Source of the DNA: a virus
Length of the DNA: 20,038 nucleotides
Direction: 5' to 3' (one strand)
UHGV virus genome: UHGV-1340863
The translations under genes and the position numbers were made by a program. Below, piece after piece: positions 43 to 19,341 of the stretch. The first letter of the stretch is position 1. Each line of letters opens with the position of its first letter. The notes under the pieces are model-generated. The model was not told the origin of the DNA and did not search any database. It saw only the letters and a list, made by a program, of their open reading frames with translations.

Positions 43-783
43 TTAACTGGCGGTGACGGTGATTTCTGCAACCGCAGCAAACTCACCATTACCGGATACA
101 ACCGGAATGTTGACCTTGCCTGCAGCAACGCCGTTCACGGTGATGGTCATACCGCTGACCGACACGGTGGCTTTTGTTTTATCCGCAGACACCGCACGGA
201 AGCTCTTGTCGGTTGCGCCCTCCGGCTGGAATGCCACGGTCAGCGTAGTGCTCTGCCCTTTCACTACGGAAGCACTGGCGGGTGTCACCGTCATGCCGGT
301 TGTCGCCGTCACCGTGCTGCGATCTTCTGCCATCGACGGACGTCCCACGTTGGTGACTTTCACCGTGCGGGTGATCACTTCCTTCGCCGTCACCGCCTTA
401 CCGATACTGCTGACCCAGCCGCGGAACACATCGACCGTGCCGTTCGGGAAGCGGATTTTATAGGCACGGGTATCCCCTTCATTAAACCACGCCAGCAGCG
501 CCTGCTGCCCCTGCTCTCCGGGCATCCACGCCAGCGTGAAGCTGGTATCTCCGGCAGATTTCTGCCCCTGCCCGGTCGCAGTCCAGTCCGCATCTTCATC
601 ATCGAGATAGCTGTCGTCATAGGACTCAGCGCTCAGTTCGCCGGGCGTCAGGTCTTTAACTTTAGCCAGACGCGACCAGTCAACGTCTGAAAGCGGGTTC
701 GCATAAGGGTCACCGTTCCCCTTATAAACCCACAGGGTGGTCCCGGCCCCTTTCACCGGCATTACTGGATTTGGTACAGGCAT
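43..783 (-). CDS. V: Major tail tube protein V
   Basis: ORF 43..813 matches lambda gpV (MPVPNP...EITVTAS) along its length. Start placed at the internal ATG (781-783) giving 246 aa; stop TAA at 43-45. Confidence 0.93.
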
Positions 784-790
784 ATCGTCC

Positions 791-1186
791 TCACATTTCA
801 TAGGTAATGACATAAGTCAGATCGGCTGAACTCCACAGGCCCGCATCATCGTCGCGCCGGTAGTCATAGCCACTGGCCACCATACTGGTGATCAAATCTG
901 ACAGTGCCGGGACATCGCTCATCACCGGATAAATCCGGGACTCCATCCACGAATCCAGCTCTGAATCCGGCACCTGAGCAGGCAGGAAAACTTCAATATG
1001 CAGCTCCGCCTGCCAGGTATCGCTGTCCAGCTCTTCGCCCGTGTATTCAGCGCCGGTGAGATAAACGGCAACTGCCGGAAAATCCTCCTCATCAAAAACA
1101 GCGGGGCGACCATCAAAAAGCGTCGCCCCGGTGTCATGTTTTTCCAGTGCATCCAGTACGGCTGCACGGAGTTCTGTATGTTTCAT
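791..1186 (-). CDS. U: Tail terminator protein U
   Basis: 131-aa [19 protein letters not shown]...LTYVITYEM matches lambda gpU; correct position between Z and V. Confidence 0.93.
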
Positions 1187-1761
1187 CGCTTTATTACCAT
1201 CCTCAGTTGATGCTGCAGCGCATAGCCCAGCTCTTTCGGAAGACGTTCACGCCGTATCCGCTCAATATTCTGTTTAAACGCCGTGGTCAGCGGCACTGCC
1301 ATCGGGATTTTCACCACATCAATGGGGTAACGGTTTTTCCCGGCCACACGCTGCATGACATGCCACCGGCCATTTTTCAGTTGCTGAATAAACGCGCCGG
1401 GAATACGACGGTTTCCCACCACAAGCACGCTGTCGCCACCTTTCAGGGATGAACGCTGCCCCTTTTTACGACGCCTGCGTCGGGACAGGACAACCCGCGC
1501 GTTACCCAGCCTGATTACGGGCAAATCCCCCCGGTTAACCTTGATTCTGGCCTGCGGATTTTTGACCGTGGCCCTTTTCAGCCTGGCCCTTTCCTTTACC
1601 AGTTTCCGGCGTACCTTTGTCTCACGGGCAACCTGTGACGCCGACTGCGATATCGCGGATGAAGCAACGCGGTTAATGGCCATTGCGGCGGCACCGGGCA
1701 CCGCCGTTCTGCTGATACGGCTGAGGTTTTCAACGGCCTGCTCAAGACCTTTTATGGCCAT
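1183..1761 (-). CDS. Z: Head-tail joining/tail completion protein Z
   Basis: 192-aa ORF MAIKGLEQAVENLSRIS... matches lambda gpZ; 4-nt overlap with U. Confidence 0.92.
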   Translation of the reverse strand: MAIKGLEQAVENLSRISRTAVPGAAAMAINRVASSAISQSASQVARETKVRRKLVKERARLKRATVKNPQARIKVNRGDLPVIRLGNARVVLSRRRRRKKGQRSSLKGGDSVLVVGNRRIPGAFIQQLKNGRWHVMQRVAGKNRYPIDVVKIPMAVPLTTAFKQNIERIRRERLPKELGYALQHQLRMVIKR

Positions 1762-1772
1762 ACATCCCCCCT

Positions 1773-2126
1773 TCAGCGACGACGGTTAACGGCAGGCGGC
1801 ACGCCACGCCCAAGCCAGAGATGACAGCTTCCGCCATCATCCGTCGAAATCCGGTCTATCCAGAAGTTTTCCTCACCGATGGTCAGCGTGTCGCCGCGCC
1901 GCAGCTGCCGCACATCATCAGTCCGGACAAACAGGGACGGGCTGGAGCCTTCAACGCGCACGCCCTGTCCGGCATAGCTGATATTTTCAGGGTCATCAAA
2001 AACACCACGTATTACTGCGCCGGACTGCTCACCGGATGTCATGGTGGCTGACGTTCCCATGTACCCGCGTATCGTTTCATCGGCGCGGGCAATGGCAGCA
2101 TCGAACAGGTTATCGAAATCAGCCAC
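1773..2126 (-). CDS. FII: Head-tail connector protein FII
   Basis: 117-aa ORF MADFDNLFDAAIARADETIRGYMGTSATMTSGEQ... matches lambda gpFII. Confidence 0.92.
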   Translation of the reverse strand: MADFDNLFDAAIARADETIRGYMGTSATMTSGEQSGAVIRGVFDDPENISYAGQGVRVEGSSPSLFVRTDDVRQLRRGDTLTIGEENFWIDRISTDDGGSCHLWLGRGVPPAVNRRR

Positions 2127-2137
2127 AGCGCCTCCCG

Positions 2138-2491
2138 TTATTGCATTCTGGCCAGGCCACGTTCTGTCATTTCGGCTGCCACACCGGCAGAGACACGGAA
2201 CGCCGTTCCCGGAAGCACAAATGCCACAGGTTCATCCCGCGTGGCGTGAAGTGCATCAGTATGCAGCGTCACCAGTGCCACGACCGTGACCAGTTCAGAC
2301 GTATCCAGAATCACGGTATCCGGCTGCGCTGATCCCACCTCATTTTCATGTCCGGTCAGCACATTTTCCCGGCTGAGAGGGGTGTCCTGACCGGCAGTTT
2401 CATCCGTGTCATCAAGCTCCTCTTCCAGCTCTGCCACACGGAGCGCCAGTTCTTCTTTCGTCCCCGTCAGGCTGACATCACGGTTCAGTTG
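2138..2491 (-). CDS. FI: DNA-packaging protein FI, C-terminal 117 codons (N-terminus lost in assembly gap)
   Basis: Translation QLNRDVSLTGTKEELALRVAELEEELDDTDE...ERGLARMQ matches lambda gpFI from about residue 16 to the end; the reading frame runs straight into the N-run. Confidence 0.88.
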   Translation of the reverse strand, partial: QLNRDVSLTGTKEELALRVAELEEELDDTDETAGQDTPLSRENVLTGHENEVGSAQPDTVILDTSELVTVVALVTLHTDALHATRDEPVAFVLPGTAFRVSAGVAAEMTERGLARMQ

Positions 2492-2591
2492 NNNNNNNNN
2501 NNNNNNNNNNNNNNNNNNNNNNNNNNNNNNNNNNNNNNNNNNNNNNNNNNNNNNNNNNNNNNNNNNNNNNNNNNNNNNNNNNNNNNNNNNN
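2492..2591. other. Scaffold/assembly gap (100 N)
   Basis: Run of exactly 100 n characters. By gene order it should contain about 143 codons of E C-terminus, the E-FI intergenic spacer and about 16 codons of FI. Confidence 0.99.
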
Positions 2592-2944
2592 AACACGATG
2601 ATATTCACCACACCGCTGGCGTTCAGCGCGTAGGCTTCGATATCGTCGGTCGGGTCATACGTGGACTTGTCACGCTTGCTCCACTCCGTGCCGCCGGACT
2701 GCGTGATGTTATTCTCCTCACTGCGGCCCATATCCACCTCAACCGGATCGAAGGCTTCACCGGTCATGGTGTATTTGCCCTTAAGCACGGCAGAAACTGC
2801 CTGCATCTCTTCGACCTGAGCAATGGCCAGCTCTTCGTCACGCATGTTCTGCATGATGATGCGACGGCGGCGGTAAGCCGGGTCCACCAGATTCTGCGGA
2901 TCTTCATCCGGCAGGCGACGCAGGGTCATCTGCGGATTCACTTC
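2592..2944 (-). pseudogene. E: Major capsid protein E, internal fragment (about codons 83-198), separated from its N-terminus by the inserted element
   Basis: Translation (E)VNPQMTLRRLPDEDPQNL...ITQSGGTEWSKRDKSTYDPTDDIEAYALNASGVVNIIV matches lambda gpE. No start codon (the track's M is GTG = Val in context); upstream in frame is element-derived P-K-H then TAA at 2954-2956. Confidence 0.9.
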
Positions 2945-2982
2945 ATGCTTGGGTTACATGAGTCAAATAGAAAAAAGATACT

Positions 2983-3010
2983 TGATTTAACAGAGATTTA
3001 TTTTATAAAT
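2983..3010 (+). promoter_or_regulatory. Candidate sigma70 promoter upstream of the TIR gene (TTGATT-N16-TATAAA)
   Basis: TTGATT at 2983-2988 and TATAAA at 3005-3010 with 16-nt spacing in an AT-rich leader. Pattern match only. Confidence 0.25.
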
Positions 3011-3031
3011 GAGAGGGTGCAGAATTACGTA

Positions 3032-3052
3032 GCAATACATGCTGCAATACAT
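3032..3052 (+). repeat. Direct repeat GCAATACAT x2 (candidate integrase arm-type sites, attL side)
   Basis: gcaatacat at 3032-3040 and 3044-3052; the same GCAATACA motif recurs at the other element end (13525-13561). Confidence 0.5.
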
Positions 3053-3162
3053 GGTTAGGGAAAAGCCTTCTTGGCATCGTACAAAAAACAAACCGAATTT
3101 TTTCTAACACAGCCAAGTAAAGCCTCCTTCACTTAATTAGTTAAATTATAAAGGAATATTCA

Positions 3163-4305
3163 ATGAAAATTTTTCTTGCTCATGCAAAAGAAGATGAAAC
3201 GATAACTGAAGAAATCTATGAAAGGCTAAAAAGTGGAGGATATTCCCCTTGGATGGATGTAAAAGATATACCCGCTGGCGTAAACTGGGATTATGAAATC
3301 CAAAAAAACTTCGCTAATTCAAACTTGATAATCCTTATCCTTAGCAAAGTGAGCACTCAGAAAAATGGTTATATTCGCCGCGAAATAAATGACGCCATTG
3401 ATAAACTAAAGTATTACAAACCAGATGATGTGTTCGTGATACCATTACTTATTGATGATTGCGAAGTACCCGCCTACATATCAAGCAAGCTCCAATTCAT
3501 TGATTTTAAGAGAAATGATGGTTGGGACATTTTATCTAGATCTTTAAGATTAGCAGCATCGCAACAAAAACTTGAAATATCTCAAGGTATCACTTATGGG
3601 CCATTTAACTTTAGCAGCGAGGTTTTCAAGGAAGAATATAACAAGATCCCAGGGCATGAAATTGAAATAGCATATCCAAGAATTGAAAGCCATACATTAC
3701 CGAAATCAGCAAAACTCATTAGTGATTACTTTTCAGGAAAAGCGGCTTTACATATTTTTTCTGAACGCACATCACTATGGCCAGGAACACCATATTGGGA
3801 TGAAGAATATAAACACACTTACACTAGTTCCTATAATGAAAGTTATAACATCTCATACTGTAACGAAAATGTCATGAGCATCCTTCATTCCGTACATTGG
3901 TATGGTGCGGGAGCAGCACACCCTAACAGTCATTTTGAAACTAGTAATTTCGTAATAACCAAGGATGACTACGCATACAAATTTAGTTTATGGGATGTAT
4001 TTACCGAAGGGAAAGAGCAAGAAGCGATTAATAAGATAAAACAAAAAATAATCTCTGAATCAGCTCGTGAATTTTGGGAGAAAACTGGTGAAAAACCAAG
4101 TGAGGACGACATTAGTACGTTTGCAACGGGTATCATGGATAGTAACTTAGACTCGTTCACAATAAATAGTGATGGATTTAGATTCCATTTTGCACCTTAC
4201 GAAATTCATGCATATGCTTTTGGTTCTTGGGAATTCTTTATCTCATTCTTTGAAGTAATAGACTTCCTTAAAGAGGATGGAATTTACTCTCTAATAAGGA
4301 GTTAA
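3163..4305 (+). CDS. TIR-domain protein (N-terminal TIR about 135 aa plus about 245-aa C-terminal domain of unknown function); candidate anti-phage NADase-type defence protein
   Basis: 380-aa ORF with AAGGAA Shine-Dalgarno 7 nt upstream of ATG. The N-terminus MKIFLAHAKEDE...GYSPWMDVKDIPAGVNWDYEIQKNFANSNLIILILSKVSTQKNGYIRREINDAIDK...DDVFVIPLLID has the bacterial TIR pattern, with a candidate catalytic Glu near residue 74 in YIRREI. Strongly AT-rich compared with its neighbours. I cannot assign the C-terminal domain by eye. Confidence 0.75.
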   Translation: MKIFLAHAKEDETITEEIYERLKSGGYSPWMDVKDIPAGVNWDYEIQKNFANSNLIILILSKVSTQKNGYIRREINDAIDKLKYYKPDDVFVIPLLIDDCEVPAYISSKLQFIDFKRNDGWDILSRSLRLAASQQKLEISQGITYGPFNFSSEVFKEEYNKIPGHEIEIAYPRIESHTLPKSAKLISDYFSGKAALHIFSERTSLWPGTPYWDEEYKHTYTSSYNESYNISYCNENVMSILHSVHWYGAGAAHPNSHFETSNFVITKDDYAYKFSLWDVFTEGKEQEAINKIKQKIISESAREFWEKTGEKPSEDDISTFATGIMDSNLDSFTINSDGFRFHFAPYEIHAYAFGSWEFFISFFEVIDFLKEDGIYSLIRS

Positions 4306-4314
4306 CATTTCAAT

Positions 4315-4337
4315 AAGCCTGAAATTTAATCAGGCTT
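4315..4337 (+). terminator. Hairpin downstream of the TIR gene (candidate intrinsic terminator)
   Basis: aagcctga (4315-4322) / tcaggctt (4330-4337) with a 7-nt loop, followed by an A/T-rich tail atatacatttcc; begins 10 nt after the TIR stop codon. Confidence 0.4.
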
Positions 4338-4659
4338 ATATACATTTCCTTATGATTAAATTATTGCTGTTCTTAAGCAAAGATGCAGCCAGAAGTAATT
4401 CCCCCTCAAGCTTGCTTGCACACATAAAGAACTGACACAAAACTCTGCTGTAAAGTTGTCTAGCCACACAGCAAAAAACATATGAAACTTTGTTATTCGC
4501 AAACTGCTTGCTCTATATTCCACCATCAAGGCGCATAAAGCAATTGCAATGGCGCAGAAGTAGGCCATAACTATGAAGTGAAGCTAGCGGCGCGTTATTG
4601 GCCGCTTCTGAATAGTGCCTGATTCAACTCAGGGATAAGATTTTTTCTGGTGATAGACC

Positions 4660-4850
4660 GCGACGGATGGCAACAAAACCAGAGAAAGGAAACGACAGAG
4701 GCCAAAAAGCCTGTTTTTAGCACCTGTCGTTTCCTTTCTTTTTAGGGGGTGTTTTTAATAAAAACATTAAGTTACGGCGAAGAAGAACGGAAACGCCTTA
4801 AACAGGAAAATTTTCACAAATAGCAAAAAACTGCGCGCCTGACGCCCCGT
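4660..4850 (-). other. Second, element-borne lambda-type cos site (cosB-like R/I-site region plus variant cosN-like sequence)
   Basis: 4674-4840 aligns by eye, same orientation, with the helper cosB at 19872-20038, differing at roughly 10 positions. The adjacent cgcgcctgacgccccgtaacg (4829-4849) resembles the lambda cosN region (GTTACG GGGCGGCGACCT CGCGGG, from memory) but is variant. Confidence 0.8.
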
Positions 4851-4903
4851 AACGTTCTGGATCGCCGGAAAGGACCCGCCAGCCAGAGCGGGCCCTAATT
4901 TCA

Positions 4904-5287
4904 TCAACCAATCAGCTTATAGCGACCATCCCGTGCATTGCGGCGTACACGCTCAATCTTGAGGCATAGCGCCGCATCTGGCTTTTTTGGGACAGGTACG
5001 CGGCAATATTCAGAAGCGCGAGGAATATTATTTATCCAGTCGATCACTTCACTTAAATACCAGGCCTTACGCCCTTCCGTAACCTGCACACGCTCCGGGA
5101 ACTCTCCACTAGCCTCAAGGTTTAGCAGTGTACGACGACTCAGGGTTGTAATTTCCATCACCTGATTCATATCAACAAGGCGCTCGCTTAAACACATTTT
5201 GTCAGCGATAGCTTTTAATTCCTCTACAGCTTGATTCGGGTACATCATTTCGGCAATTGGCTTAAGGTCATTGTAATCATTCTGCAT
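4904..5287 (-). CDS. AlpA/excisionase-family wHTH protein, cos-adjacent (function unknown; regulator or packaging-redirection candidate)
   Basis: 127-aa ORF with AAGGGGGA SD. The segment ITTLSRRTLLNLEASGEFPERVQVTEGRKAWYLSEVIDWINN has the AlpA/Xis-type HTH signature; the gene ends 54 nt from the element cos. Confidence 0.6.
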   Translation of the reverse strand: MQNDYNDLKPIAEMMYPNQAVEELKAIADKMCLSERLVDMNQVMEITTLSRRTLLNLEASGEFPERVQVTEGRKAWYLSEVIDWINNIPRASEYCRVPVPKKPDAALCLKIERVRRNARDGRYKLIG

Positions 5288-5298
5288 TGTATCCCCCT

Positions 5299-5640
5299 TT
5301 ACACACGAGCCAGCGGCTGAACAGAAATACCTGAGCCAACAAACGCTGCAACCTTTACTGACAGTTCTTTAACAGACTCAGGCCAGTTCAGAGCATCAAC
5401 ATTTAAGACACCTGTCTTATAGACCTGAGCCTGTGTTTTTTTCGCGGTGTCGATTTGTACAGCGGAAACATAAACCGCTTTACCTACGCTCGAACCATCC
5501 CATACCACCAGTGCACCTGTTGCATCTTCCTGCATCAGTGGCGTAAATGCAGGAATTACCCCTTTATTAGCTGAAAATATCCCCAGCGTAGTCACCAGTG
5601 CTTCAGTGCCAGCCATGAGTTCAGTGTAATGAGTAGCCAT
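5299..5640 (-). CDS. Head decoration protein, lambda gpD-like (element-encoded paralogue)
   Basis: 113 aa; TPLMQEDATGALVVWDGSS...YKTGVLNVDALNWPESVKELSVKVAAFVGSGISV aligns with lambda D ([19 protein letters not shown]...[34 protein letters not shown]). AAGGGGGAG SD; start 10 nt after the E-like gene stop. Confidence 0.8.
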   Translation of the reverse strand: MATHYTELMAGTEALVTTLGIFSANKGVIPAFTPLMQEDATGALVVWDGSSVGKAVYVSAVQIDTAKKTQAQVYKTGVLNVDALNWPESVKELSVKVAAFVGSGISVQPLARV

Positions 5641-5649
5641 TGCTCCCCC

Positions 5650-6690
5650 TTAGCCAATGCGAACGGTAACAAAACGATTGATGCGGGCCGGTATTGGCTG
5701 TGGTGCTGAATGTGTCTGCACATATTCAATAGCCGGATCACCAGGCACAATATAGTTTTTCGGTGCAAGTTCGGCTTTAGTCAGCCCCATTCGGATTAGC
5801 TCCGGATCCTGAATACCGCCATAGGCGACAATCCCCTGAAGAGCCGTATTGCCAAGCACCATCAAATCAGGATCAAGGAAATGTTTTTCTGTTCCGTCCT
5901 CGTCGGTATAACGCCCGCTGTAAACAACAATCGCAACATCGCCCATATACCCTTTAAAACTCACCGAATCACCAAGGTCTTTAAGGGCCGTTTCCAGTTC
6001 GGAATTAGAACCACGACGGGTATCCAGAGCCTCTTTTATCGCTCTGAATGAACGGTATTTCTTCCATACATTACCGCCCATAATGATAATATTAGTGACG
6101 CCCTCACTAAATTCTGCGTAGCTCTCAATATCATCATTTGGATCAAAAGTTTCTTTATCCTTACCTGACCACTCAGCACCGCCAGACTGAGTGATGATAT
6201 TTTGTGGTTTAATATTCCAGTCCAGCTCATAACGTTCAATACCATCGCCCTCAATGATATTTTTCCCCGTTGTGATTGCCTGAACAGCAAGCCATTCAAT
6301 ACGTGCACGAATAGCTTTAGCTTGATTTACAATCGCCTGTTTAACTTTAATATTACGCGCCCCAAAAGCATTGTATTGCTCAGGTGATACACCAGCAGGG
6401 CGCACAGCTAACTTATTTGGATCAATGCTGCTTTTCGGCTTCATATAGCCTGGACGAATTGTTTTTGATTCGTACCCTTCGTCACGTGAAACTTTACTAC
6501 CCACCATAGGAGAACAAAACGCTGCAATTGGGATATTTGGATCGTCGATTGTATCAAGAATAATATCGCGCGATTCAAACATTACCGAGCGAGTAAAAAA
6601 CAAACTGGTAAACAACGCATTTAGTTGTTTTTGTACATCTACAGCATTAACCACCTGTACAAGCTGAGTAGGCGAATATAAATCAACCAT
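5650..6690 (-). CDS. Major capsid protein, lambda gpE-like (element-encoded, diverged paralogue of the interrupted helper E)
   Basis: Aligns with lambda E along its whole length, e.g. NIITQSGGAEWSGKDKETFDPNDDIESYAEF vs NNITQSGGTEWSKRDKSTYDPTDDIEAYALN, and FRAIKEALDTRRGSNSELETALKDLG...GDVAIVVYSG vs FKAVKEKLDTRRGSNSELETAVKDLG...GDVAIVVYSG. Start set at ATG 6688-6690 (MVDLYSPTQL..., SD AGAGG) rather than the ORF-track start at 6864; 346 aa vs 341 for E. Confidence 0.85.
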   Translation of the reverse strand: MVDLYSPTQLVQVVNAVDVQKQLNALFTSLFFTRSVMFESRDIILDTIDDPNIPIAAFCSPMVGSKVSRDEGYESKTIRPGYMKPKSSIDPNKLAVRPAGVSPEQYNAFGARNIKVKQAIVNQAKAIRARIEWLAVQAITTGKNIIEGDGIERYELDWNIKPQNIITQSGGAEWSGKDKETFDPNDDIESYAEFSEGVTNIIIMGGNVWKKYRSFRAIKEALDTRRGSNSELETALKDLGDSVSFKGYMGDVAIVVYSGRYTDEDGTEKHFLDPDLMVLGNTALQGIVAYGGIQDPELIRMGLTKAELAPKNYIVPGDPAIEYVQTHSAPQPIPARINRFVTVRIG

Positions 6691-6864
6691 ACGCATCCTC
6701 TTTGCATTCATTAAAAATAATTGTGGATATATGCTATCACCGATATTTGTCATGCGAATACATGCAACCGAGTGCAATGTTGTATAAAGTTTTGGGGTGA
6801 CAACTTCAGTGCGGAAAATTAGTGTTAATATCTTCACTCCCTTTGGTCGGGATTTATGTAGCAT

Positions 6865-6899
6865 GCCGGAAAATTTATTTTTTCCGGCCTTTTTTTATT
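6865..6899 (+). terminator. Strong intrinsic-terminator-like hairpin, active in plus orientation
   Basis: gccggaaaa (6865-6873) / ttttccggc (6880-6888) stem followed by a run of T residues (6889-6899). On the minus strand the stem is not followed by a U-tract. Confidence 0.5.
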
Positions 6900-6907
6900 G
6901 GCAATAT

Positions 6908-7357
6908 TTAAAACGGGATATCATCTCCCCATTGCTCATTATCTCCCACTGGTGGCTGGCTTCCTTGCTGATCTGCCTGTTGTTTTGCTCTGTTCAGTGC
7001 GTCAGTAGCCTGCCCCTGTTGGCCTTTATTGCCGCCCGGTCGCACCGATCGCGCACTGATTACGCTGTCTGCGATAACCTGCCAGCCCTGCCGCGTTTCG
7101 CCGTTCTGTCCAGTCCACTGGCTCATCTGCATGTTACCCGCCACGCTCAGGAGTTCGCCTTTGTGATGCTTTGCCAGCGCGTCGGCTTGTCTGCCAAACG
7201 CCAGGACAGATAACCACATCGTCGCCTGACCGTCATCCGACTGACTGCAGGGCAGTGATACCGCCATACGCGCCAGCGTCATGGGGGTGCCCTTGCTGGT
7301 CTGTTTTGTCTGCGGGTCGTCCACCAACCGCCCGTAAACTGATATTTGCGCCGTCAT
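6908..7357 (-). CDS. ssb: Single-stranded DNA-binding protein (SSB)
   Basis: 149 aa; N-terminal OB-fold-like region (ISVYGRLVDDPQ..., WTGQNGETRQGWQVIADSV), Gly/Gln-rich linker and the hallmark acidic C-terminal tail ...WGDDIPF. GGAGAG SD; ATGA overlap with the upstream ORF. Confidence 0.8.
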   Translation of the reverse strand: MTAQISVYGRLVDDPQTKQTSKGTPMTLARMAVSLPCSQSDDGQATMWLSVLAFGRQADALAKHHKGELLSVAGNMQMSQWTGQNGETRQGWQVIADSVISARSVRPGGNKGQQGQATDALNRAKQQADQQGSQPPVGDNEQWGDDIPF

Positions 7358-7599
7358 GCTGCCTGCTCTCCGGACTTAATATTGATTGTTGTCACTTCCT
7401 CCGCTTCAGCAATCTCCCGTTCGGTCAGAGTGGCAAAGTTTGCAGCCGCCGTTGTCATGAATGCGCTAATCAGTTCGGGATGTGCTTTCGCGTATCCTTC
7501 CCCGGCGTTGCGGTCGATGATTTTTATCGACACCCTTAACCAGTGTTCCGTCAAATCAAGGGCGTGCGATTGTGATTTTTTTGTGTGCTTCGCTGTCAT
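7354..7599 (-). CDS. Hypothetical protein (81 aa), translationally coupled to ssb
   Basis: ORF between the iteron cluster and ssb; its stop overlaps the ssb start (ATGA). No recognisable motif; weak RBS. Confidence 0.45.
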   Translation of the reverse strand: MTAKHTKKSQSHALDLTEHWLRVSIKIIDRNAGEGYAKAHPELISAFMTTAAANFATLTEREIAEAEEVTTINIKSGEQAA

Positions 7600-7650
7600 A
7601 GGCTTTATCTCACAGCAGTAAATTAAAATTTTTGCGTTTTAACCCTTCAC

Positions 7651-7873
7651 CTGTTCACCTTTTGATATTTTCTCTTTTAATTCATAATGTTAATTGGTGA
7701 ACAGTTTCACAAAAACTATTCACCAACTGTTCACCACTGTTCACCCTTGAAGCTCAATAAACAATCAAAAAGGTGAACAGTGAATAGTTTGGTGAACAGT
7801 TCATAAATAACTGTTCACCCTATAATATACTGATATAAAAGATATTTATGACAGGGTGAACAGTGGTGAACAG
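7651..7873. repeat. Iteron cluster: at least 9 copies of GGTGAACAG/CTGTTCACC in both orientations; candidate satellite origin of replication
   Basis: Copies at 7651-7659, 7696-7704, 7727-7735, 7737-7745, 7772-7780, 7791-7799, 7811-7819, 7855-7863 and 7865-7873, embedded in AT-rich DNA immediately downstream of the replication-protein gene. Confidence 0.8.
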
Positions 7874-7886
7874 TTATTCCATAAGT

Positions 7887-9707
7887 TTAATTTTTGCTAT
7901 CGTCATTAGTGACCGATACACATGATGGCATCCAGTCTTCTGATTCCTCCGTCAGTGTCACGTTTGAACGCAAACCGTGCTTCGTTTTCCGTTTCATATA
8001 CTCCCTGCCATATTCCGCCATTGCCCCCGGCATATCTTTACCGAAGCGCGTCAGTGTTACAGGTTTACCAAACCCATGTGCCCTCATATAAGCCAGATAG
8101 GCATGATAGAGATACCTGCGTGGGCTGAATGGCACAATTTCAGCATTACCCACTAACAGGCCATCACACATTACCGATGCCATGAGATAGCCGCAGAAGT
8201 CCACCAGCGAATCCCCCTCTCGCTTTATCGCCAGTGCTTCTTCAGATTTCTGCTGCTCATATAACAGGCGTCTGGCTTCGTCCTGATCAGCAAACCGTGT
8301 AAGCAGATGGCGAATCACTACCGCCAGCTCACCTTCTATTTTTTCCGCCAGCATCGAATCGCGTTCGTTCTCCGGTACAACTTCCGAAAAATTGAATATC
8401 ACCCGACGACGTGAGATCCCCCCGCTGCGGTCACTGAATGACATGGCGTTATTGTTAACCGCCAGCACTACTGCCGGAATACGCGTTGAATAGGGGGCTT
8501 TGTGTTTCGGGTCAATTGCCACCTTGTCACCGCCTGTAATGGCCTTAATCCCTGCCCCATCACCAGCGTAGCGGGTCATATCCGGCATGATAATCAGCGA
8601 AAAGCCAACCACTAACGCACGTTCCCTTGCATCTTCCAGCGCCTTCATGCTTGCTGATACTGTATTAGCCTTACCCGCCAGCATGGTGCAAATCTCCGCC
8701 ATCACACTTTTACCACTTCCCCCCGGCCCTGTTACCTCAATGAATAACTGCCAGTCGTACCGGTTCGCCAGCACCATGAATAATGCCGCCAGTACGCGAT
8801 CTGCCTTGCGGTCATTCTCAGCCACCGAACGGCGCAACCACTTCCAGAAATTCGGCGCATGTGTTGCCAGCGTTTCCCCCTCTGCTGGTGGGCTGAAAGG
8901 TAATTCACTGGCAATTAACAACCAGTCGTTTTTGTTATGCTCCCGAAAGTTACCAGTTCTGGTATCAAATACCCCGTTACTGAATCCAATCAGGTTACGG
9001 GCTGTATTCCCCATTACAGGCAAACTTAACTTCATGGTATCTACCGCCGATTTAATAGCGTTCTGCGAATAGCTGATCTCCGCATCAATGAAAATCTGCG
9101 CCATAGCACGCTGTAACTCTTTATCCTGAACCGGCTCCCATACAACGCCGTTGTAATGATGAACGGTGTCAGAGTCGGCATTGATTGCCAGTTCGCCGCC
9201 GTAATGTGCAAGGAGAACTTCACCGCGCTGGCTGGCCCCCATCTGATTCAACGCCAAAGATGAAGCACGCTCGTCATTTTTGCGCTCAGCCTTCTTAACT
9301 GGCAGTTCAATCACCAGACTTTCCCCATGCTCCGCTTCAGCTTTTAGGCCGACAAGGCGCGGAGTCCAGTCTTCAGGCTCTCGATCAACAAAGCTACGGT
9401 AACAACGTGCTTCCTTTACGCCTGCAATAGCAAGTAATGTCGCAACCTTCGTCAGACTTTTCTCTGCAATCTTTCCGGCACGATAAACACGCACATAATG
9501 ACGGCCTTCATCGATAATTTGCATATCATCCAGGTTTTCCAGTTGTTCCGTACCCAGAATGACTGGTGGTGTATCATCTGCTGCAATATGCTTACCTGCC
9601 CATTCATTCCATTCTTTTGCATGGCTCCAGGCATCACTGCCAGCAAAAATGATGACTTCCGTCATTTTGTCGCGCGGTTGGTATTTTAAGTTCGGAGCAC
9701 GTTTCAT
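7887..9707 (-). CDS. Replication initiator: D5/P4-alpha-type SF3 helicase-primase (PICI Pri-Rep-like)
   Basis: 606 aa; Walker A motif VTGPGGSGKS with a downstream hydrophobic stretch ending in acidic residues (LIIMPDM); overall resemblance to the C-terminal NTPase of phage/plasmid primases. GGAGGT SD; ATGA overlap with the upstream small ORF; iterons directly downstream. Confidence 0.75.
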   Translation of the reverse strand: MKRAPNLKYQPRDKMTEVIIFAGSDAWSHAKEWNEWAGKHIAADDTPPVILGTEQLENLDDMQIIDEGRHYVRVYRAGKIAEKSLTKVATLLAIAGVKEARCYRSFVDREPEDWTPRLVGLKAEAEHGESLVIELPVKKAERKNDERASSLALNQMGASQRGEVLLAHYGGELAINADSDTVHHYNGVVWEPVQDKELQRAMAQIFIDAEISYSQNAIKSAVDTMKLSLPVMGNTARNLIGFSNGVFDTRTGNFREHNKNDWLLIASELPFSPPAEGETLATHAPNFWKWLRRSVAENDRKADRVLAALFMVLANRYDWQLFIEVTGPGGSGKSVMAEICTMLAGKANTVSASMKALEDARERALVVGFSLIIMPDMTRYAGDGAGIKAITGGDKVAIDPKHKAPYSTRIPAVVLAVNNNAMSFSDRSGGISRRRVIFNFSEVVPENERDSMLAEKIEGELAVVIRHLLTRFADQDEARRLLYEQQKSEEALAIKREGDSLVDFCGYLMASVMCDGLLVGNAEIVPFSPRRYLYHAYLAYMRAHGFGKPVTLTRFGKDMPGAMAEYGREYMKRKTKHGLRSNVTLTEESEDWMPSCVSVTNDDSKN

Positions 9708-9991
9708 TTGTTACCTCCGGCAACTAACATTGCCCGAATTTTACGGATATAGCCTGCGGCACGCCTCTGATTATCTGTCTTGCAATTTTTTACCAGAATG
9801 AAATCTCTTTCGAACTGCTGACGCGGCATAACACATTCAAAATCATAACCATCACGCAAATAAGAGACACGACGATCATCAACCGAAATAATCTTTACCC
9901 GATAGCCATAGCTGTCTTTGAAAATATCCCCAAGGCTGATTTTTGAATGAGTTTGACCGCTGGCAATAAAGCCAGAAAATTTATTTTTCAT
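9704..9991 (-). CDS. Hypothetical protein (95 aa), replication operon
   Basis: ORF in an operon-like array with stop/start overlap to the helicase-primase gene; no recognisable motif. Confidence 0.5.
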   Translation of the reverse strand: MKNKFSGFIASGQTHSKISLGDIFKDSYGYRVKIISVDDRRVSYLRDGYDFECVMPRQQFERDFILVKNCKTDNQRRAAGYIRKIRAMLVAGGNK

Positions 9992-9994
9992 TTT

Positions 9995-10219
9995 TTATTC
10001 TCCGGTATAGCTCTGGTCGTGTATTTTTATAGCTTCATCCAGCTCTTTGATGACAGGATCAAGTAACGTAATTAACGCTCCAGCTAAATTAGCATCCCGT
10101 TCATCGTGTTCCGCATTTGTTGTCCCATCAAGCCAGGTTGATAAGATTTCTCGCATATTTTTGCCACAAACGAGCGCGTTTTCAGCATGTGTCAGCACTT
10201 TAAAATAAAGATCATTCAT
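9995..10219 (-). CDS. Hypothetical protein (74 aa), replication operon
   Basis: Strong AGGAGGTG SD upstream of ATG at 10217-10219; overlaps the end of the upstream ORF by 8 nt. Confidence 0.5.
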   Translation of the reverse strand: MNDLYFKVLTHAENALVCGKNMREILSTWLDGTTNAEHDERDANLAGALITLLDPVIKELDEAIKIHDQSYTGE

Positions 10220-10577
10220 GGCACACCTCCTGACGAATACGGGCGGCGAATATCATCACGTAGCCAGTTGGGAATTGCTGGCGGGCTTCCTGTTCGCTGG
10301 CGGCCTCGATGTGTATTACGCGTGGTTGTGCGGTGCTCAGGGCGATAAAACGCCAGATGAAATTGTTTTCGCATTTCTGAATAAACAGCGTGTTTTCTTC
10401 ACGCCCTTTCCAGAAAGCCGCAGTATAGCCCATCTCCTTAACCATCTTGCGGGCATCAACCAGCGTGTCAGCGGCAACATGTACCGTAGTTGCTCCATCT
10501 GCCATGCGGTCGTGGTGTAGTGCCAGAAAGGTGTATATAAATTTAGGGTGAGTTTGGGTATGCTGTGTTCCAGCCAT
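10212..10577 (-). CDS. Hypothetical protein (121 aa), first gene of the leftward replication operon
   Basis: C-terminal 121 codons of the 304-aa track ORF, starting at ATG 10575-10577 (MAGTQHTQTH...) with a GAGGT SD. The long N-terminal extension in the track overlaps the operator region and the divergent gene and is rejected. Confidence 0.5.
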   Translation of the reverse strand: MAGTQHTQTHPKFIYTFLALHHDRMADGATTVHVAADTLVDARKMVKEMGYTAAFWKGREENTLFIQKCENNFIWRFIALSTAQPRVIHIEAASEQEARQQFPTGYVMIFAARIRQEVCHE

Positions 10578-10664
10578 AATCGTTACCTCGTTTAACGGTT
10601 TGGTTAGAAGCCCGGTTAGTGTTCGCGCACTGCCGGGTTTCGTCGTTTTTATGAATCGATCATT

Positions 10665-10766
10665 GTGAGATACATAGCGACCATGATGTGAGATATACAT
10701 TATATTGTGGTGATATACATTGCAAGTGTTTTTATATCTCACTTTTGTGTATAGTGATATACACAT
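10665..10766. promoter_or_regulatory. Operator-like repeat cluster (GTGAGATA(TA)CAT x5, one inverted) in a divergent promoter region
   Basis: gtgagatacat 10665-10675, gtgagatatacat 10688-10700, gtgatatacat 10710-10720, inverted tatatctcac 10733-10742, gtgatatacacat 10754-10766; lies between the divergent genes starting at 10577 (-) and 10786 (+). Confidence 0.6.
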
Positions 10767-10785
10767 AACAAATTGGTGATTAACT

Positions 10786-11088
10786 ATGTCTGTATACAAA
10801 AATGCAAAATCGCAAATGACAACGATCAGGGTTCCCCACGATGTTATGGAGGGCATGGAATCCGTAAAACTGGACGGCGAAAGCAACGCCGGATTCATAG
10901 TAACCGCCATGCGCGGTGAGATCGCCCGCCGCCAGGCAGAAGGAAGCGGAGAAAATCCCCTCGTGTCTTCACTGGATGCCTTAGCTAAGGTCGAACAAAT
11001 CGGCATCAAGGCAGCGGAGGAAATCGGGCAACTCGTAGCCGTCGCTCGTGAAGAACTCCAGCGGCGTAAAGCCAAAGAATCTGAATAA
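10786..11088 (+). CDS. Putative small DNA-binding regulator (possible ribbon-helix-helix fold), divergent from the replication operon
   Basis: 100-aa ORF with GGTGA SD; N-terminal TTIRVPHDVMEGMESV resembles an RHH beta-strand/helix start. Position next to the operator repeats fits a repressor or activator role. Fold assignment is a guess. Confidence 0.45.
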   Translation: MSVYKNAKSQMTTIRVPHDVMEGMESVKLDGESNAGFIVTAMRGEIARRQAEGSGENPLVSSLDALAKVEQIGIKAAEEIGQLVAVAREELQRRKAKESE

Positions 11089-11097
11089 TTACTATCA

Positions 11098-11124
11098 GCG
11101 CCGTGATGTGAGTAACTACGGCGC
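11098..11124 (+). terminator. Hairpin downstream of the regulator gene
   Basis: gcgccgt (11098-11104) / acggcgc (11118-11124) stem with 13-nt loop, 10 nt after the stop codon; the downstream tail is only moderately T-rich. Confidence 0.35.
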
Positions 11125-11438
11125 ATTGCTATGTAAATACTGGCAATAAACAGAAAAGGTAGTTCTACTCCGAATAATTTTATCTGACACTACTCCTGAA
11201 CTAACATGCGCTTATCTTACAGGATATAAATATAGATCCATAAAATCACGATTAAATAAAGTCGCTCCAAACATAAACCACACCCAACGCTTAACAAGAT
11301 AGCAACAAACAGATAAATAACTTGCAGAAATATTTATCGCAAGGATTATCATTATTAATTACAAATCACTTTACCAAGTCATTCCCCTCTCTTATCATAA
11401 AGAGAAAGTAATAAATAAGTTAAGGGAGTTAGAATACT

Positions 11439-11975
11439 ATGAATCTAAAAAAAATAGCCACAAACATAAAAAACAAGATAATAGAAACATTCAATAAACT
11501 TATATTAGAGGCATCTAAAACCCCCACACAAGATGAAATTAAAATACTTGAGAGAAGAAGTAAAAAGTTTAATTACTCCTTTTTCTCATACGCAGTCACA
11601 GGAGCCATAATGGTTTTTTGCTCTCAACCATTAATAAAATACGCAAACCCAATGCTTATTTTATTGAGTGGTCTGTTACTGTCTATCATCATTATCCTTC
11701 TCAGAATGATTTATATTTCACAAGCGAATGCATCATGGACAACCAAAAAACGTTCACATGTACTAGTTCATTTTCTTTCTGCATGTTTCATAGCGTCAAC
11801 ATTGACGTTGTTATATCAGGCTTACGATAATAACATCACACACAAATTGTACTGTAAAAATATACAACAACTTATTGAAAAAAGGATAGAAACAGAAAAA
11901 AATATCAGCATATTCAGTGGGATGCAATGCACCCCGGCATATGATTACTCTTTATTTGGATTTAATCTCTTATAA
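11439..11975 (+). CDS. AT-rich multi-pass membrane protein (178 aa), function unknown; cargo gene candidate
   Basis: Three hydrophobic helices (AVTGAIMVFCSQPLI, MLILLSGLLLSIIIILLRMIYI, VLVHFLSACFIASTLTLLYQAY); GGGAG SD upstream; strongly AT-rich island (about 11100-12040) flanked by GC-richer element genes. Confidence 0.6.
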   Translation: MNLKKIATNIKNKIIETFNKLILEASKTPTQDEIKILERRSKKFNYSFFSYAVTGAIMVFCSQPLIKYANPMLILLSGLLLSIIIILLRMIYISQANASWTTKKRSHVLVHFLSACFIASTLTLLYQAYDNNITHKLYCKNIQQLIEKRIETEKNISIFSGMQCTPAYDYSLFGFNLL

Positions 11976-12044
11976 AGAATGTTATTACTGATTTGAGTGC
12001 AAATTCTCAAATCAGTAATTCATAATATTTTATTCTGAGATAAT

Positions 12045-12272
12045 TTAAACTACCCACTCACCTCGAATCCATGCCTGCACTTCTGAAAGACGATATGCAA
12101 CAGCAGTGGAGCCAATCTTGATCCGCTTAGGAAATTTCCCTTCCTTCTCCAGCTTCCAGCGTGTGCTGTTCGCAAGAGTGGTTAGCTCCCGACATTCTTT
12201 CTCACGGATCATACGATCGATGTTAGGAATGTACTCCAGACCCTTTTTATCAACAATCGCCATTTTTTTCAT
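12045..12272 (-). CDS. AlpA-family HTH protein (excisionase / transcriptional activator candidate)
   Basis: 75 aa; LTTLANSTRWKLEKEGKFPKRIKIGSTAVAYRLSEVQAWIRGE matches the AlpA/Xis HTH pattern (..EGKFPKP.K.G.R...W...E.Q.WI); directly downstream of int. Confidence 0.75.
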   Translation of the reverse strand: MKKMAIVDKKGLEYIPNIDRMIREKECRELTTLANSTRWKLEKEGKFPKRIKIGSTAVAYRLSEVQAWIRGEWVV

Positions 12273-12273
12273 G

Positions 12274-13509
12274 TTAACCAGCCTTTTGTTTGAGGATTAT
12301 CACTTTTGAATCAGCACCTGCGATGCTATTGAGATATGTAGTCCAGAGTTCCAGAGCATCCAGTTTTTTAGCCATAAACTTACTCCGGTTGTAAACACCT
12401 GCCACGCCAGGTAGCGCATGGCCTAACAGTTGTTCTACTACATAAAATTCAACACCGAGATCACTTAGATGAGTAGATAGCGTTCTTCTAAGGTCGTGTA
12501 GTGACCATTGTTTTTCATGGCCCAAACGTTTACCGATTTTCCCCCCAATCTTGCTTACGCTTTCTCTAATTCGCAGACTTCCCAGCACATAACCAGTATG
12601 TTTTGTCTCTTCGTGAACATCCGTTACCCACTGTCGTAGAATTTCAGGTACTGGTCTGACGATTTCAACACCAGTTTTTGAGTGATCTTTTGGTACAGTC
12701 CAAACCCAACTTTCGAGATCCCATTCGCTCCATTCTGATAATCGGGCTTCACTCATTCGACATCCAAATACTGTACAAAGTACAAACATTTTTCGCGTGT
12801 ATTCAGACATTAGTTTTAAATCAGGCTCGACAAAAATTGCTTTCCAGAGCTGGCCCAGCTCGGCTTCATCCAGAACCCGATCCCGCTTACCTGCAATCTG
12901 CCCCACATCACTCATGCGCAAATCCTTTAAAGCATCACACGTCGCGTACTGGCGTACCCGACAAAAACGAAGAGCTAATTTAGTGTCAGAAAAAACATAC
13001 GCCGCCATAACTGGTGCATTACGTTTAATTCGGTCAAAACAGTCCAGCCATTCATATAGGTGAGTGTCATTTACAGGCAAATGACCGATATAGGGAAAAA
13101 TATGCTTTCGAAATCTGCCAAGCGTTACAGCATGAGTTTTACGACGCACCTTACAGTAATTTTCATACCAGTAATTTAGTGCATCCTCCACTGTGACCGG
13201 CTTTAAGCGTTCTTCAGCCTGAATCTTAATCTGGATACGCGGATCACGTTTGTCAGCCAACCAACCACGGCACTCGTCGCGCTTTTCCCTTGCCTGTTTG
13301 AGTGACATATCAGGATATTTACCCAACGTTAGCCAGACCGGAGCAGCCCGGCCACCTGCTAACCTGTAGAAGAAAACAAAGCTCACAGCCCCCTTGGTAC
13401 TCACACGAATAGAAAGCCCCTTTCCATCAGCAATGGTGATCTGCTTTTCTCTGGGTTTCCCCAGATATCCTTTAAGTGCTTTGTCGCTCAGTTTGTTCTC
13501 GCCAGCCAT
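12274..13509 (-). CDS. int: Tyrosine site-specific integrase (P4-type, N-terminal arm-binding domain)
   Basis: 411 aa from ATG 13507-13509 (MAGENKLSDK...); C-terminal catalytic region with HDLRRT and LLGH motifs plus a downstream Tyr; terminal gene of the element, beside the right junction. Confidence 0.88.
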   Translation of the reverse strand: MAGENKLSDKALKGYLGKPREKQITIADGKGLSIRVSTKGAVSFVFFYRLAGGRAAPVWLTLGKYPDMSLKQAREKRDECRGWLADKRDPRIQIKIQAEERLKPVTVEDALNYWYENYCKVRRKTHAVTLGRFRKHIFPYIGHLPVNDTHLYEWLDCFDRIKRNAPVMAAYVFSDTKLALRFCRVRQYATCDALKDLRMSDVGQIAGKRDRVLDEAELGQLWKAIFVEPDLKLMSEYTRKMFVLCTVFGCRMSEARLSEWSEWDLESWVWTVPKDHSKTGVEIVRPVPEILRQWVTDVHEETKHTGYVLGSLRIRESVSKIGGKIGKRLGHEKQWSLHDLRRTLSTHLSDLGVEFYVVEQLLGHALPGVAGVYNRSKFMAKKLDALELWTTYLNSIAGADSKVIILKQKAG

Positions 13510-13524
13510 TTTAAGCCCCAAAAA

Positions 13525-13561
13525 GCAATACAAGCTGCAATACAGAGATGATTGCAACACA
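13525..13561 (+). repeat. Direct repeats GCAATACA x2 plus GCAACACA (candidate integrase arm-type sites, attR side / int leader)
   Basis: gcaataca at 13525-13532 and 13537-13544, gcaacaca at 13554-13561; same motif and orientation as 3032-3052 at the opposite end. Confidence 0.5.
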
Positions 13562-13641
13562 CAGATAACGAGGAAAATCCAGTGAAAGCGCCAGATAGAC
13601 TTATTCTTTATTATCAAAAGATTAAGTGTAAAAACCAGCAA

Positions 13642-13917
13642 CTACACGAAAGCCTCAGAAAGCCATGCTAAGTGCTTCGGCTTGACATATCCCGGCGTAA
13701 ATTCAGAGGTGGAGCCGCCACGGGAACGGATAACCTCACCGGAAACAATCGGCGAAACGTACAGCGCCATGTTTACCAGTCCCGGAATTTGTGAGAGATA
13801 GACTTTCTCCGTGGTGAAGGGATAGCTCTCACGGAAAAAGAGACGCAGAAACAGCGGATCAAACTTAAATTTCTGCTCATTTGCCGCCAGCAGCTGGGCG
13901 GTTGTGTACATCGACAT
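13642..13917 (-). pseudogene. E: Major capsid protein E, N-terminal 82 codons fused to 9 element-derived codons and a stop
   Basis: MSMYTTAQLLAANEQKFKFDPLFLRLFFRESYPFTTEKVYLSQIPGLVNMALYVSPIVSGEVIRSRGGSTSEFTPGYVKPKH matches lambda E 1-82, then LAWLSEAFV-stop encoded by element sequence (13642-13671). Confidence 0.9.
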
Positions 13918-13972
13918 AAAAAAATCCCGTAAAAAAAGCCGCACAGGCGGCCTTTAGTGATGAAGGGTAAAG

Positions 13973-14305
13973 TTAAACGATGCTGATTGCCGTTCCGGCA
14001 AACGCGGTCCGTTTTTTCGTCTCGTCGCTGGCAGCCTCCGGCCAGAGCACATCCTCATAACGGAACGTGCCGGACTTGTAGAACGTCAGCGTGGTGCTGG
14101 TCTGGTCAGCAGCAACCGCAAGAATGCCAACGGCAGCACCGTCGGTGGTGCCATCCCACGCAACCAGCTTACGGCTGGAGGTGTCCAGCATCAGCGGGGT
14201 CATTGCAGGCGCTTTCGCACTCAATCCGCCGGGCGCGGTTGCGGTATGAGCCGGGTCACTGTTGCCCAGCGGCTGGTAATGGGTAAAGGTTTCTTTGCTC
14301 GTCAT
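13973..14305 (-). CDS. D: Head decoration protein D
   Basis: [12 protein letters not shown]...[11 protein letters not shown], 110 aa, matches lambda gpD; start taken at the internal ATG that reproduces the lambda N-terminus. Confidence 0.92.
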
Positions 14306-14314
14306 AAACATCCC

Positions 14315-14920
14315 TTACACTGGTGTGTTCAGCAAATCGTTAACGGCATCAGATGCCAGGTTACCTGCAGCCAGCGGTGCCGGTGCCCCCTGCATCAGAC
14401 GATCCAGCGCAGTGTCACTGCGCGCCTGTGCACTCTGTGGTGCAACTGCCAGAATGCGGCGGGCCGTTTCCACGGTCATACCAGGGGTTTCGGCCAGCAC
14501 GCGTGCCTGTTCTTCGCGTCCGTGAGCTTCCTCACAGTTGAGGATCCCCATAATGCGACTGTTTTCTGCCGCAACCGCTGCGGTGATCTGCGCGTTCACG
14601 TCCGGCTGCGCAGCGCTGGCGTTCTCGCCCTCCGTCGCTGGCACCACGCCAGTAACGTCAGCCTGCGAAGCAGTGGCTGAAACAGTTGTTGATTGAGTCT
14701 CTTTGGTCATTCGCCCTCCTGAGAGACGGGATTTACGTGCATCCAGTGCATCACGCATGACGGTGATCGCATCGGTACTGTTAACAAGTTCATCAGCCAG
14801 TCCGGCATCAATGGCCTCCTGACCGCTGTACACTGCAGCCTCGGTATCCAGCACAGCCTGCACGGACAGGCCGGTATATGCCGACACCTTCTGTGCAAAC
14901 ATCCGGCGGGTTGCATCCAT
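14315..14920 (-). CDS. Nu3: Scaffolding protein Nu3 (in-frame internal start within C)
   Basis: In lambda, Nu3 is the C-terminal 201 codons of the C frame; here an ATG lies exactly 201 codons before the shared stop (MDATRRMFAQKVSAYTG...). Confidence 0.7.
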   Translation of the reverse strand: MDATRRMFAQKVSAYTGLSVQAVLDTEAAVYSGQEAIDAGLADELVNSTDAITVMRDALDARKSRLSGGRMTKETQSTTVSATASQADVTGVVPATEGENASAAQPDVNAQITAAVAAENSRIMGILNCEEAHGREEQARVLAETPGMTVETARRILAVAPQSAQARSDTALDRLMQGAPAPLAAGNLASDAVNDLLNTPV

Positions 14921-15614
14921 CCGGGACTGCAGTGTTTCCCGGACATCATCCGGTAGATGGCTGTAGGGGTTGCCATCCACCTTATGGCTGCCGCTGTAAA
15001 TCAGCGTGATTTCCACGCCCTGTTTCTCCAGCGCAGCACCGTAATTACTGTGAGCCATCATGACGCCGATGGAGCCTGTCCGGGCGGTCTGCGTGACCAG
15101 ACGTCGGGAGGCGGCGCTGGCAAGCAACTGACCTGCACTGCAGTTCATGTCGTTGGCCAGCGCCCATACCGGCTTTATGTCACGCACACGGGCGATGATG
15201 TCAGCGCAGTCAAATGCCCCTGCCACCATCCCGCCTGGCGTATCCATATCGAGCAGAATGCCGTCCACCATCGGGTCGCTGGCAGCCTGTTGCAGACGGG
15301 CGATAATGCCGTTGTAACCGGTCATCCCCGAATACGGCTGCAGCGCTCGCGTCCGACTGACCAGCGTGCCGGACACCGGCAGCACGGCGATGCCGTTCAT
15401 GACCTGATAACTGCGGGCCTGTCGTGGTCCGTCATCATCAACGGATAACGCCAGCGCCGCGGGTGCCTCTCCGGCAGTCAGGCTGTCGCCGGATACCGCA
15501 TCCGTCAGGCGGCTGATCCCAAGCTGGCCTGCAAGCGCACAAAAGAAAACCCGCGCATAGGCGGGTTCAAGCATCAGCGGCTCATTAAAGGCCATACTGG
15601 CAATATGCGGGAGA

Positions 15615-15634
<20 letters not shown>
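14315..15634 (-). CDS. C: Capsid assembly protease C (GTG start)
   Basis: Matches lambda gpC from (V)TAELRNLPHIASMAFNEP... to ...NDLLNTPV; 439 codons when started at GTG 15632-15634, which has a GGAGG SD upstream. The longer track ORF is an upstream in-frame extension overlapping B. Confidence 0.9.

Positions 15635-19315
<3,681 letters not shown>

Positions 19316-19341
<26 letters not shown>

Follow-up and report, generated by a model that had tools for sequence, protein, structure and literature searches.

An iteron array as the probable replication origin of a helper-embedded phage satellite in an Escherichia coli prophage

Origins of the phage-inducible chromosomal islands (PICIs) of Escherichia coli have been described as an 'AT rich region flanked by two sets of iterons' (PMC6092414, Fig. 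2a). In one of these islands, EcCICFT073, a segment comprising the gene pri and the origin supports plasmid maintenance, and less so when either pri or ori is lost (PMC6092414). A helper-embedded PICI (HE-PICI), 11capE, has been published in E. coli NRG857c, where a cos segment was also reported (PMC10111431). In the satellite P4, the origin-binding domain of the initiator alpha is a winged-helix DNA binder placed C-terminal to a helicase of the SF3 family (PMC2777425). We consider here an array of short repeats at positions 7651-7873 of a viral DNA of 20,038 nucleotides (UHGV virus genome UHGV-1340863), the whole of which is called the window in what follows. Judged on its sequence, this array is very probably the replication origin of a PICI that is a variant of 11capE, and the 606-aa protein encoded next to it would be an initiator of the P4 alpha type that reads the repeat GGTGAACAG.

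The array is a feature of an ordinary and already known kind. This is well supported, because between int and the HTH gene the island that carries it shares 97-99% identity with 11capE (285 of 287 positions in the origin; 96.8% in the int region against NRG857c), and because this type of origin was described, and tested on the homologous though divergent origin of EcCICFT073, in 2018. With 11capE the island shares its insertion site in the lambdoid capsid gene E, and with PICIs of the 11capE/EcCICFT073 type the order int, alpA, DUF4222, pri, array, small open reading frame (ORF), ssb, capsid and decoration. The cargo is different, a TIR-domain gene in the window island instead of the HEPN/DUF262 genes of 11capE. 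In EcCICFT073 the array also lies directly 3' of pri, on the same scaffold of sites, but its iterons are GGTAGAYA and its origin-binding domain is only ~35% identical. The origins of Staphylococcus aureus pathogenicity islands (SaPIs, which are Gram-positive PICIs) are further away, with different iterons and initiators that are distantly related when compared via the helicase match to the structure 7ola. Iteron plasmid origins have direct repeats of 17-22 bp, Rep proteins of the WH1-WH2 type, DnaA boxes and DnaB loading. Plasmids of the pSC101, R6K, P1 or RK2 type resemble the present locus in combining a repeated short site, their own initiator and an adjacent AT-rich unwinding region (PMC4980987). 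By contrast, the sites of the array are 9 bp long and stand in both orientations, and the initiator doubles as the helicase. DnaA boxes are absent from the window and GATC from the array, which argues against an origin of the DnaA or Dam type and fits a DnaA-independent origin opened by an initiator-helicase.

Layout of the array and of its initiator

The 9-mer GGTGAACAG has nine exact matches in 7651-7873 and none in the rest of the window. The expectation by chance is 0.08 (largest value, 2) per 20-kb window, and nine matches were reached in 0 of 100 dinucleotide-preserving shuffles. The exact copies start as follows:

Plus strand: 7696, 7772, 7791, 7855, 7865
Minus strand: 7651, 7727, 7737, 7811

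When one mismatch is allowed, the array gains GGTGAATAG at 7716-7724 on the minus strand, while the rest of the window yields scattered single matches. Two more degenerate sites, aGTGAATAG (7779-7787, plus strand) and GGTGAAgGg (7643-7651, minus strand), are in register with good copies of relatives, which brings the total to 12 sites (9 exact and 3 degenerate) between 7643 and 7873, with the consensus GGTGAACAG(T). A first, sequence-only reading of this DNA had counted at least nine copies of the 9-mer in both orientations, a count that stands (five exact copies on the plus strand, four on the minus strand). It had also described their spacing as irregular, and this has to be abandoned: the sites are ordered with dyad symmetry. 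The midpoints of the site pairs of opposite orientation all fall within 7757-7758.5, defining a dyad centre at about 7757 and two inverted units of ~105 bp. Each unit consists of three tandem sites in steps of 10-11 bp, one inverted site, an AT-rich spacer of ~35 bp and two tandem sites. The parts are these:

7772-7873, plus strand: unit A, adjoining the initiator gene, with sites at 7772(+), 7779(+, degenerate), 7791(+), 7811(-), then the spacer, then 7855(+) and 7865(+)
7746-7771: central AT-rich segment of 26 bp between the inverted units, which holds the dyad centre
7643-7745, minus strand: unit B, distal, with sites at 7737(-), 7727(-), 7716(-, 1 mismatch), 7696(+), then the spacer, then 7651(-) and 7643(-, degenerate)
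7816-7854: AT-rich spacer of unit A, least stable duplex of the window and candidate unwinding element
7659-7696: AT-rich spacer of unit B, second least-stable stretch of the window

Two inverted six-site units flanking 7746-7771 match the layout of the PICI origins in PMC6092414. Over 25 bp, the nearest-neighbour free energy of the unit A spacer is in the top 1% of the window; the 26-bp centre is less extreme than the two spacers. The spacer of unit B holds the motif TTAAC-N3-ATGAATTAAAAGA, which is kept across iteron classes and in P4. A motif close to TAAYATWMTGAWWTAAAAGA, present in both AT-rich spacers (7659-7696, 7816-7854), is kept in all the iteron classes of loci L003-L021 and in P4 ori (L007, 9340-9395). 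As it is common to all classes, this motif may answer to a constraint other than the reading of iterons, for instance binding by a factor of the host, a role in unwinding or a promoter. A match to the IHF consensus lies in the spacer of unit A (7823-7835, minus strand); the window has three such matches for 1.4 expected, which is not significant.

The array fills an intergenic stretch of 287 bp (7600-7886) where GC content is 0.22-0.40, as against about 0.5 in the flanks. It begins 13 nt past the stop codon (7887-7889) of the initiator gene and ends 43 nt ahead of the ATG (7599) of the next minus-strand ORF, so that its earlier description as AT-rich DNA directly following a replication-protein gene is borne out. 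It is the single iteron cluster of the island and of the whole window. The ORFs within it are small, of 20-29 codons. A permissive Rfam search of 7300-8200 gave matches far below threshold only, to long miRNA hairpins, and the single strand of the region folds strongly (z = -8.4); both results come from the dyad symmetry and do not point to an RNA gene.

Upstream of the array, in the direction of transcription, lies the gene of the presumed initiator:

7887-9707, minus strand: initiator gene, 606 aa
7932-8003, minus strand: initiator aa 569-592 (EYMKRKTKHGLRSNVTLTEESEDW), after the recognition helix, a segment that tracks the iteron class

The protein comprises an N-terminal domain of ~135 aa, D5_N, an SF3 helicase P-loop domain and a C-terminal winged-helix origin-binding domain (aa 498-594). 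Its Pfam matches are to D5_N, to the SF3-helicase P-loop domain (DUF5906) and to Pox_D5. Residues 149-596 align with residues 323-771 of P4 alpha, that is, with its helicase and origin-binding domains (51% identity over 449 aa). The helicase domain matches the structure 7ola (E=2.6e-10), and aa 498-594 match the solved P4 origin-binding domain, 1KA8 (E=1.9e-24). The gene had previously been read as coding for a helicase-primase. Homology to P4 alpha upholds the helicase, and adds an origin binder, whereas the primase half of the name finds no support in homology: the fold of the N-terminus is at best weakly Toprim-like, its hhalign alignment with the primase region of P4 has a probability of 2%, and neither the Zn ribbon nor the catalytic Toprim of a DnaG-type primase domain is found there. 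From its sequence, then, the label "primase" appears unsupported for the 606-aa protein. Residues 569-592 would form the beta-hairpin wing of the DNA-binding domain, an assignment that rests on canonical winged-helix topology and on PMC2777425; a single-sequence AlphaFold model of the domain (pLDDT 36.6) was not used for it. The same N-terminal domain is found fused directly to SSB, capsid or PerC in the database proteins P0015, P0022, P0023, P0024, P0047, P0059 and P0062, which seem to come from islands of this kind in which deletions have removed the helicase, the origin-binding domain and the origin.

P4 and other relatives

The P4 record (NC_001609) labels TGTTCACC 'ori type 1 repeat' both in ori and in the cis required region for replication, crr, and from this annotation and general knowledge we take the type 1 iterons to be the sites that alpha binds. 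GGTGAACAG contains TGTTCACC, and the copies in P4 ori are mostly cTGTTCACC, which is the same 9-mer. A full-text literature search for TGTTCACC returned primer noise only. Both half-units of the array match P4 ori site for site, with a partly shared spacer sequence, and their start-to-start intervals run in parallel:

P4 ori: 10, 11, 22, 43, 10 bp
Unit B of the window: 10, 11, 21, 44, 8 bp
Unit A of the window: 19 (two steps), 21, 43, 10 bp

The island and P4 are alike in the iteron, in the layout and spacing of the ori unit, in the position of a cluster directly 3' of the initiator gene, and in the SF3 helicase and winged-helix origin-binding domain common to both initiators. They differ in that P4 has two separated cis elements, ori and crr (the latter, two direct repeats of 120 bp), where the island has one cluster of two inverted units; in that P4 alpha has a DnaG-type primase region of 322 aa which the 606-aa protein lacks; in that a terminator stands between alpha and crr in P4, while none is predicted after the window initiator; and in that the helper of the island is lambdoid, not P2-like. 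Of the P4-like core set of de Sousa and Rocha, psu, sid, delta and epsilon have no Pfam matches among the island ORFs scanned, which are all but a few small ones. What the locus shares with a P4-type replicon is thus the type 1 iteron and the alpha-type initiator, and not the pair of cis elements.

We compared 24 loci: five islands from E. coli or from phage records, P4, 16 species representatives (genome contigs), EcCICFT073 and NRG857c. In 23 of them an array lies directly 3' of the initiator gene, on the same scaffold of positions and orientations. At the other, L022, from Erwinia rhapontici (NZ_CP159261), a terminator-like hairpin follows the alpha-like gene in place of the array, and the origin may therefore lie elsewhere. 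The 287-bp origin region of the window is itself present in 671 of 5,426 complete E. coli genomes. Among eight diverged relatives of the GGTGAACA class, the sites are 83.5% conserved and the spacers 59.8% (Mann-Whitney p=1e-9). In the other classes the core of the iteron is altered in all copies together, to GGTAGACA, GGCGGACA, GGTGGACA or GGTGGAKA, and each class pairs with its own version of initiator aa ~569-592. Between proteins of the GGTAGACA class and the window initiator, identity is 90-92% for the helicase and 80-85% for the binding-domain core, but drops to 28% over aa 569-592. P4 alpha, which goes with the same GGTGAACA iteron as the window, has 51% identity in the helicase and 45% in the binding-domain core, and yet 56% in aa 569-592. 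Co-variation of iteron and segment, as read in these sequences, does not simply follow overall relatedness. DNA homology to islands H85-H87 ends at about position 8000 of the window, within the codons of aa 569-592, which suggests that segment and array travel as one module.

Another element deserves a word of its own. L002 (LR881103.1, 'Escherichia phage vB_KppS-Ant'), an induced element of 16.5 kb, has the same alpha-like initiator and a GGTGAACA(C/G) array, and carries an integrase as well as its own terminase, portal and capsid genes. Although deposited as a phage, it has the look of a PICI that forms capsids.

Origin or another role

That the array is the origin of a satellite of the PICI type, served by its own initiator, had been proposed from the outset. 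The proposal gains from the match to 1KA8, from the type 1 iteron of P4, from the co-variation of iteron and initiator, from the identity with 11capE and from plasmid maintenance by the homologous pri-ori module of EcCICFT073; and it is favoured by the position of the array, which is that of Gram-negative PICI origins and of P4 crr. By analogy with these systems, the island would replicate autonomously. A plausible course of events would be the following. After induction, AlpA would drive unidirectional transcription, and the winged-helix domains of the initiator would occupy the 12 iterons. The AT-rich spacers, the least stable DNA of the window, would then melt, and SF3 helicase hexamers would load, the inverted layout being suited to two rings moving in opposite directions, hence to bidirectional theta replication. 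The SSB of the island would coat the strands and the host Pol III would copy them. Priming would probably be left to the host DnaG, because the initiator has no recognisable primase domain.

Several points weigh against this origin reading. P4 replication starts away from the cluster that adjoins alpha, which is crr, and requires two clusters; the island has one. The Erwinia locus L022 has no array within 420 bp after its alpha-like gene. The pairing between wing and iteron is not one to one, EcCICFT073 combining GGTAGAYA with a short and different segment. With its divergent binding domain and its different iteron, the EcCICFT073 experiment transfers to the window by architecture only. To be sure, we infer origin function for GGTGAACAG-class PICI arrays from their sequence, and the melting site, the loading of a double hexamer and the dependence on DnaG are conjectural throughout.

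The first of these points can be turned into an explanation in its own right, in which the array would be a cis-acting enhancer of the crr kind and nothing else, with initiation at some other place in the island or in the prophage around it. The P4 cluster directly 3' of alpha is indeed annotated as crr ('cis required region for replication'), with ori 4.5 kb away; the host prophage has replication functions of its own, and replication of the whole composite has been observed (PMC10111431). We nevertheless consider it improbable: the 20-kb window has no second iteron cluster, each half-array has the site layout and spacing of P4 ori and not those of a crr unit, and pri with the adjacent array was enough for plasmid maintenance in EcCICFT073 (PMC6092414).

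The array might also act mainly as an operator or promoter, either controlling the downstream operon (81-aa gene, ssb, capsid, decoration) or allowing autoregulation of the initiator. It does fill the entire intergenic space upstream of a co-oriented operon, with no terminator-like site after the initiator gene, and the spacer has kept a TTAACA-like motif accompanied by a weak -10. In iteron replicons, moreover, initiators often autoregulate through their own iterons. A scan of 7300-8100 on both strands for promoters and terminators found nothing: as no sigma-70-like promoter passes on either strand, a promoter-only function is unsupported, and there is no terminator such as that of P4. Furthermore, the same sites are found in P4 ori in a different gene context, and they co-vary with an origin-binding domain fused to a helicase. 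The chances of a mainly regulatory array are therefore as slim as those of a mere enhancer. A regulatory role added to that of origin is possible, and is compatible with the origin reading.

Still less probable is a packaging (cos/pac) or partition site. Repetitive, AT-rich, bendable DNA would not be out of place in a satellite that needs packaging, and the IHF match of unit A could be counted on that side; but a separate cos-like segment lies at 4673-4829, as reported for 11capE, the ORFs scanned include no par genes, and the repeat would be read by a replication initiator and not by a terminase. With a cos-like segment found elsewhere in the island, packaging was rejected. Finally, a chance or decaying repeat, for which there is only the general caution that short repeats arise in AT-rich DNA, can be set aside in view of the shuffles, of the number of E. 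coli genomes having the region, of conservation that is specific to the sites and of copies that change in concert between lineages.

The island and what its origin implies

The window spans the head and tail genes of a lambdoid E. coli prophage (Nu1, A, W, B, C, D ... FI, FII, Z, U, V), which run from 43 to 19861. The major capsid gene among them, E, is split into an N-terminal part (13672-13917) and a C-terminal part (2165-2953), and the co-oriented island lies between them on the minus strand. A run of 100 N (a scaffold gap) at 2492-2591, in the C-terminal fragment of E, creates a spurious 'E-FI fusion' ORF at 2138-2941. Besides the initiator gene and the array, the island contains, in the order of the listed genes:

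2947-13672, minus strand: HE-PICI island of ~10.7 kb, inserted in lambdoid capsid gene E
12274-13509, minus strand: int, tyrosine integrase
12045-12272, minus strand: alpA
between alpA and DUF4222 in the listed order, minus strand: Icd-like gene
9704-9991, minus strand: DUF4222 gene
7354-7599, minus strand: ORF of 81 aa, phrog_1231, directly downstream of the array and at the same position in EcCICFT073 and 11capE
6908-7357, minus strand: ssb, single-stranded DNA-binding protein of the replication module (PF00436, E=1.7e-16)
5650-6864, minus strand: the island's own homologue of capsid E
5299-5640, minus strand: the island's own homologue of decoration D
after decoration D in the listed order, minus strand: second HTH gene
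3163-4305, plus strand: cargo, a 380-aa protein with a TIR domain and DUF3298

As expected of a Gram-negative PICI (unidirectional int, alpA and pri, a length of ~10-20 kb, no tail or lysis genes), the element measures ~10.7 kb and has int, alpA, pri, ssb, capsid and decoration on the minus strand. Its junctions, AAGCCGAAGCA and AACCCAAGCA, match the published att block aacccaagca / agccgaagca (site E_Phage_cap_E_80). A perfect IHF consensus, TATCAAAAGATTA, at 13612-13624 on the plus strand adjoins the att junction and the integrase gene, as expected for an attP arm. The cargo position looks like a swappable slot for anti-phage defence at the 3' end of the island. The cos-like segment 4673-4829 (157 bp) is 94% identical to prophage positions 19876-20032, just upstream of Nu1, where lambda cos maps. 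From this resemblance it is likely to be the cos site by which the helper terminase packages the island.

A few points were not found stated in the literature that we searched: the identity of iterons and unit layout with those of P4, the initiator segment that tracks the iteron class, the absence of a recognisable primase domain, and one inverted-duplicated cluster instead of ori and crr. These are modest increments, and the general picture of such origins is unchanged. More tentatively, and we would sooner bet against it, the lambdoid-dependent PICI family and the P2-dependent P4 satellites may make a single replication-specificity group, because they have the same iteron and a similar iteron-reading segment. 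If so, a co-resident P4-like alpha could fire or titrate a PICI origin, and vice versa, and where the C-terminal segment and the array were swapped together (the GGTAGACA, GGCGGACA and GGTGGACA classes), the elements would have escaped to orthogonal groups. Phage satellites would then have among them a system akin to incompatibility, with a specificity code that can be read from ~24 residues.

Whatever the fate of that idea, the origin reading has consequences of its own. The array would make the island a satellite that replicates itself, and not just the passive residue of a prophage, and it helps annotate a very common E. coli element. Taken with the P4-like iteron and layout, the segment that tracks the iteron class and the missing primase domain, it offers a testable specificity code and raises the question of who primes.
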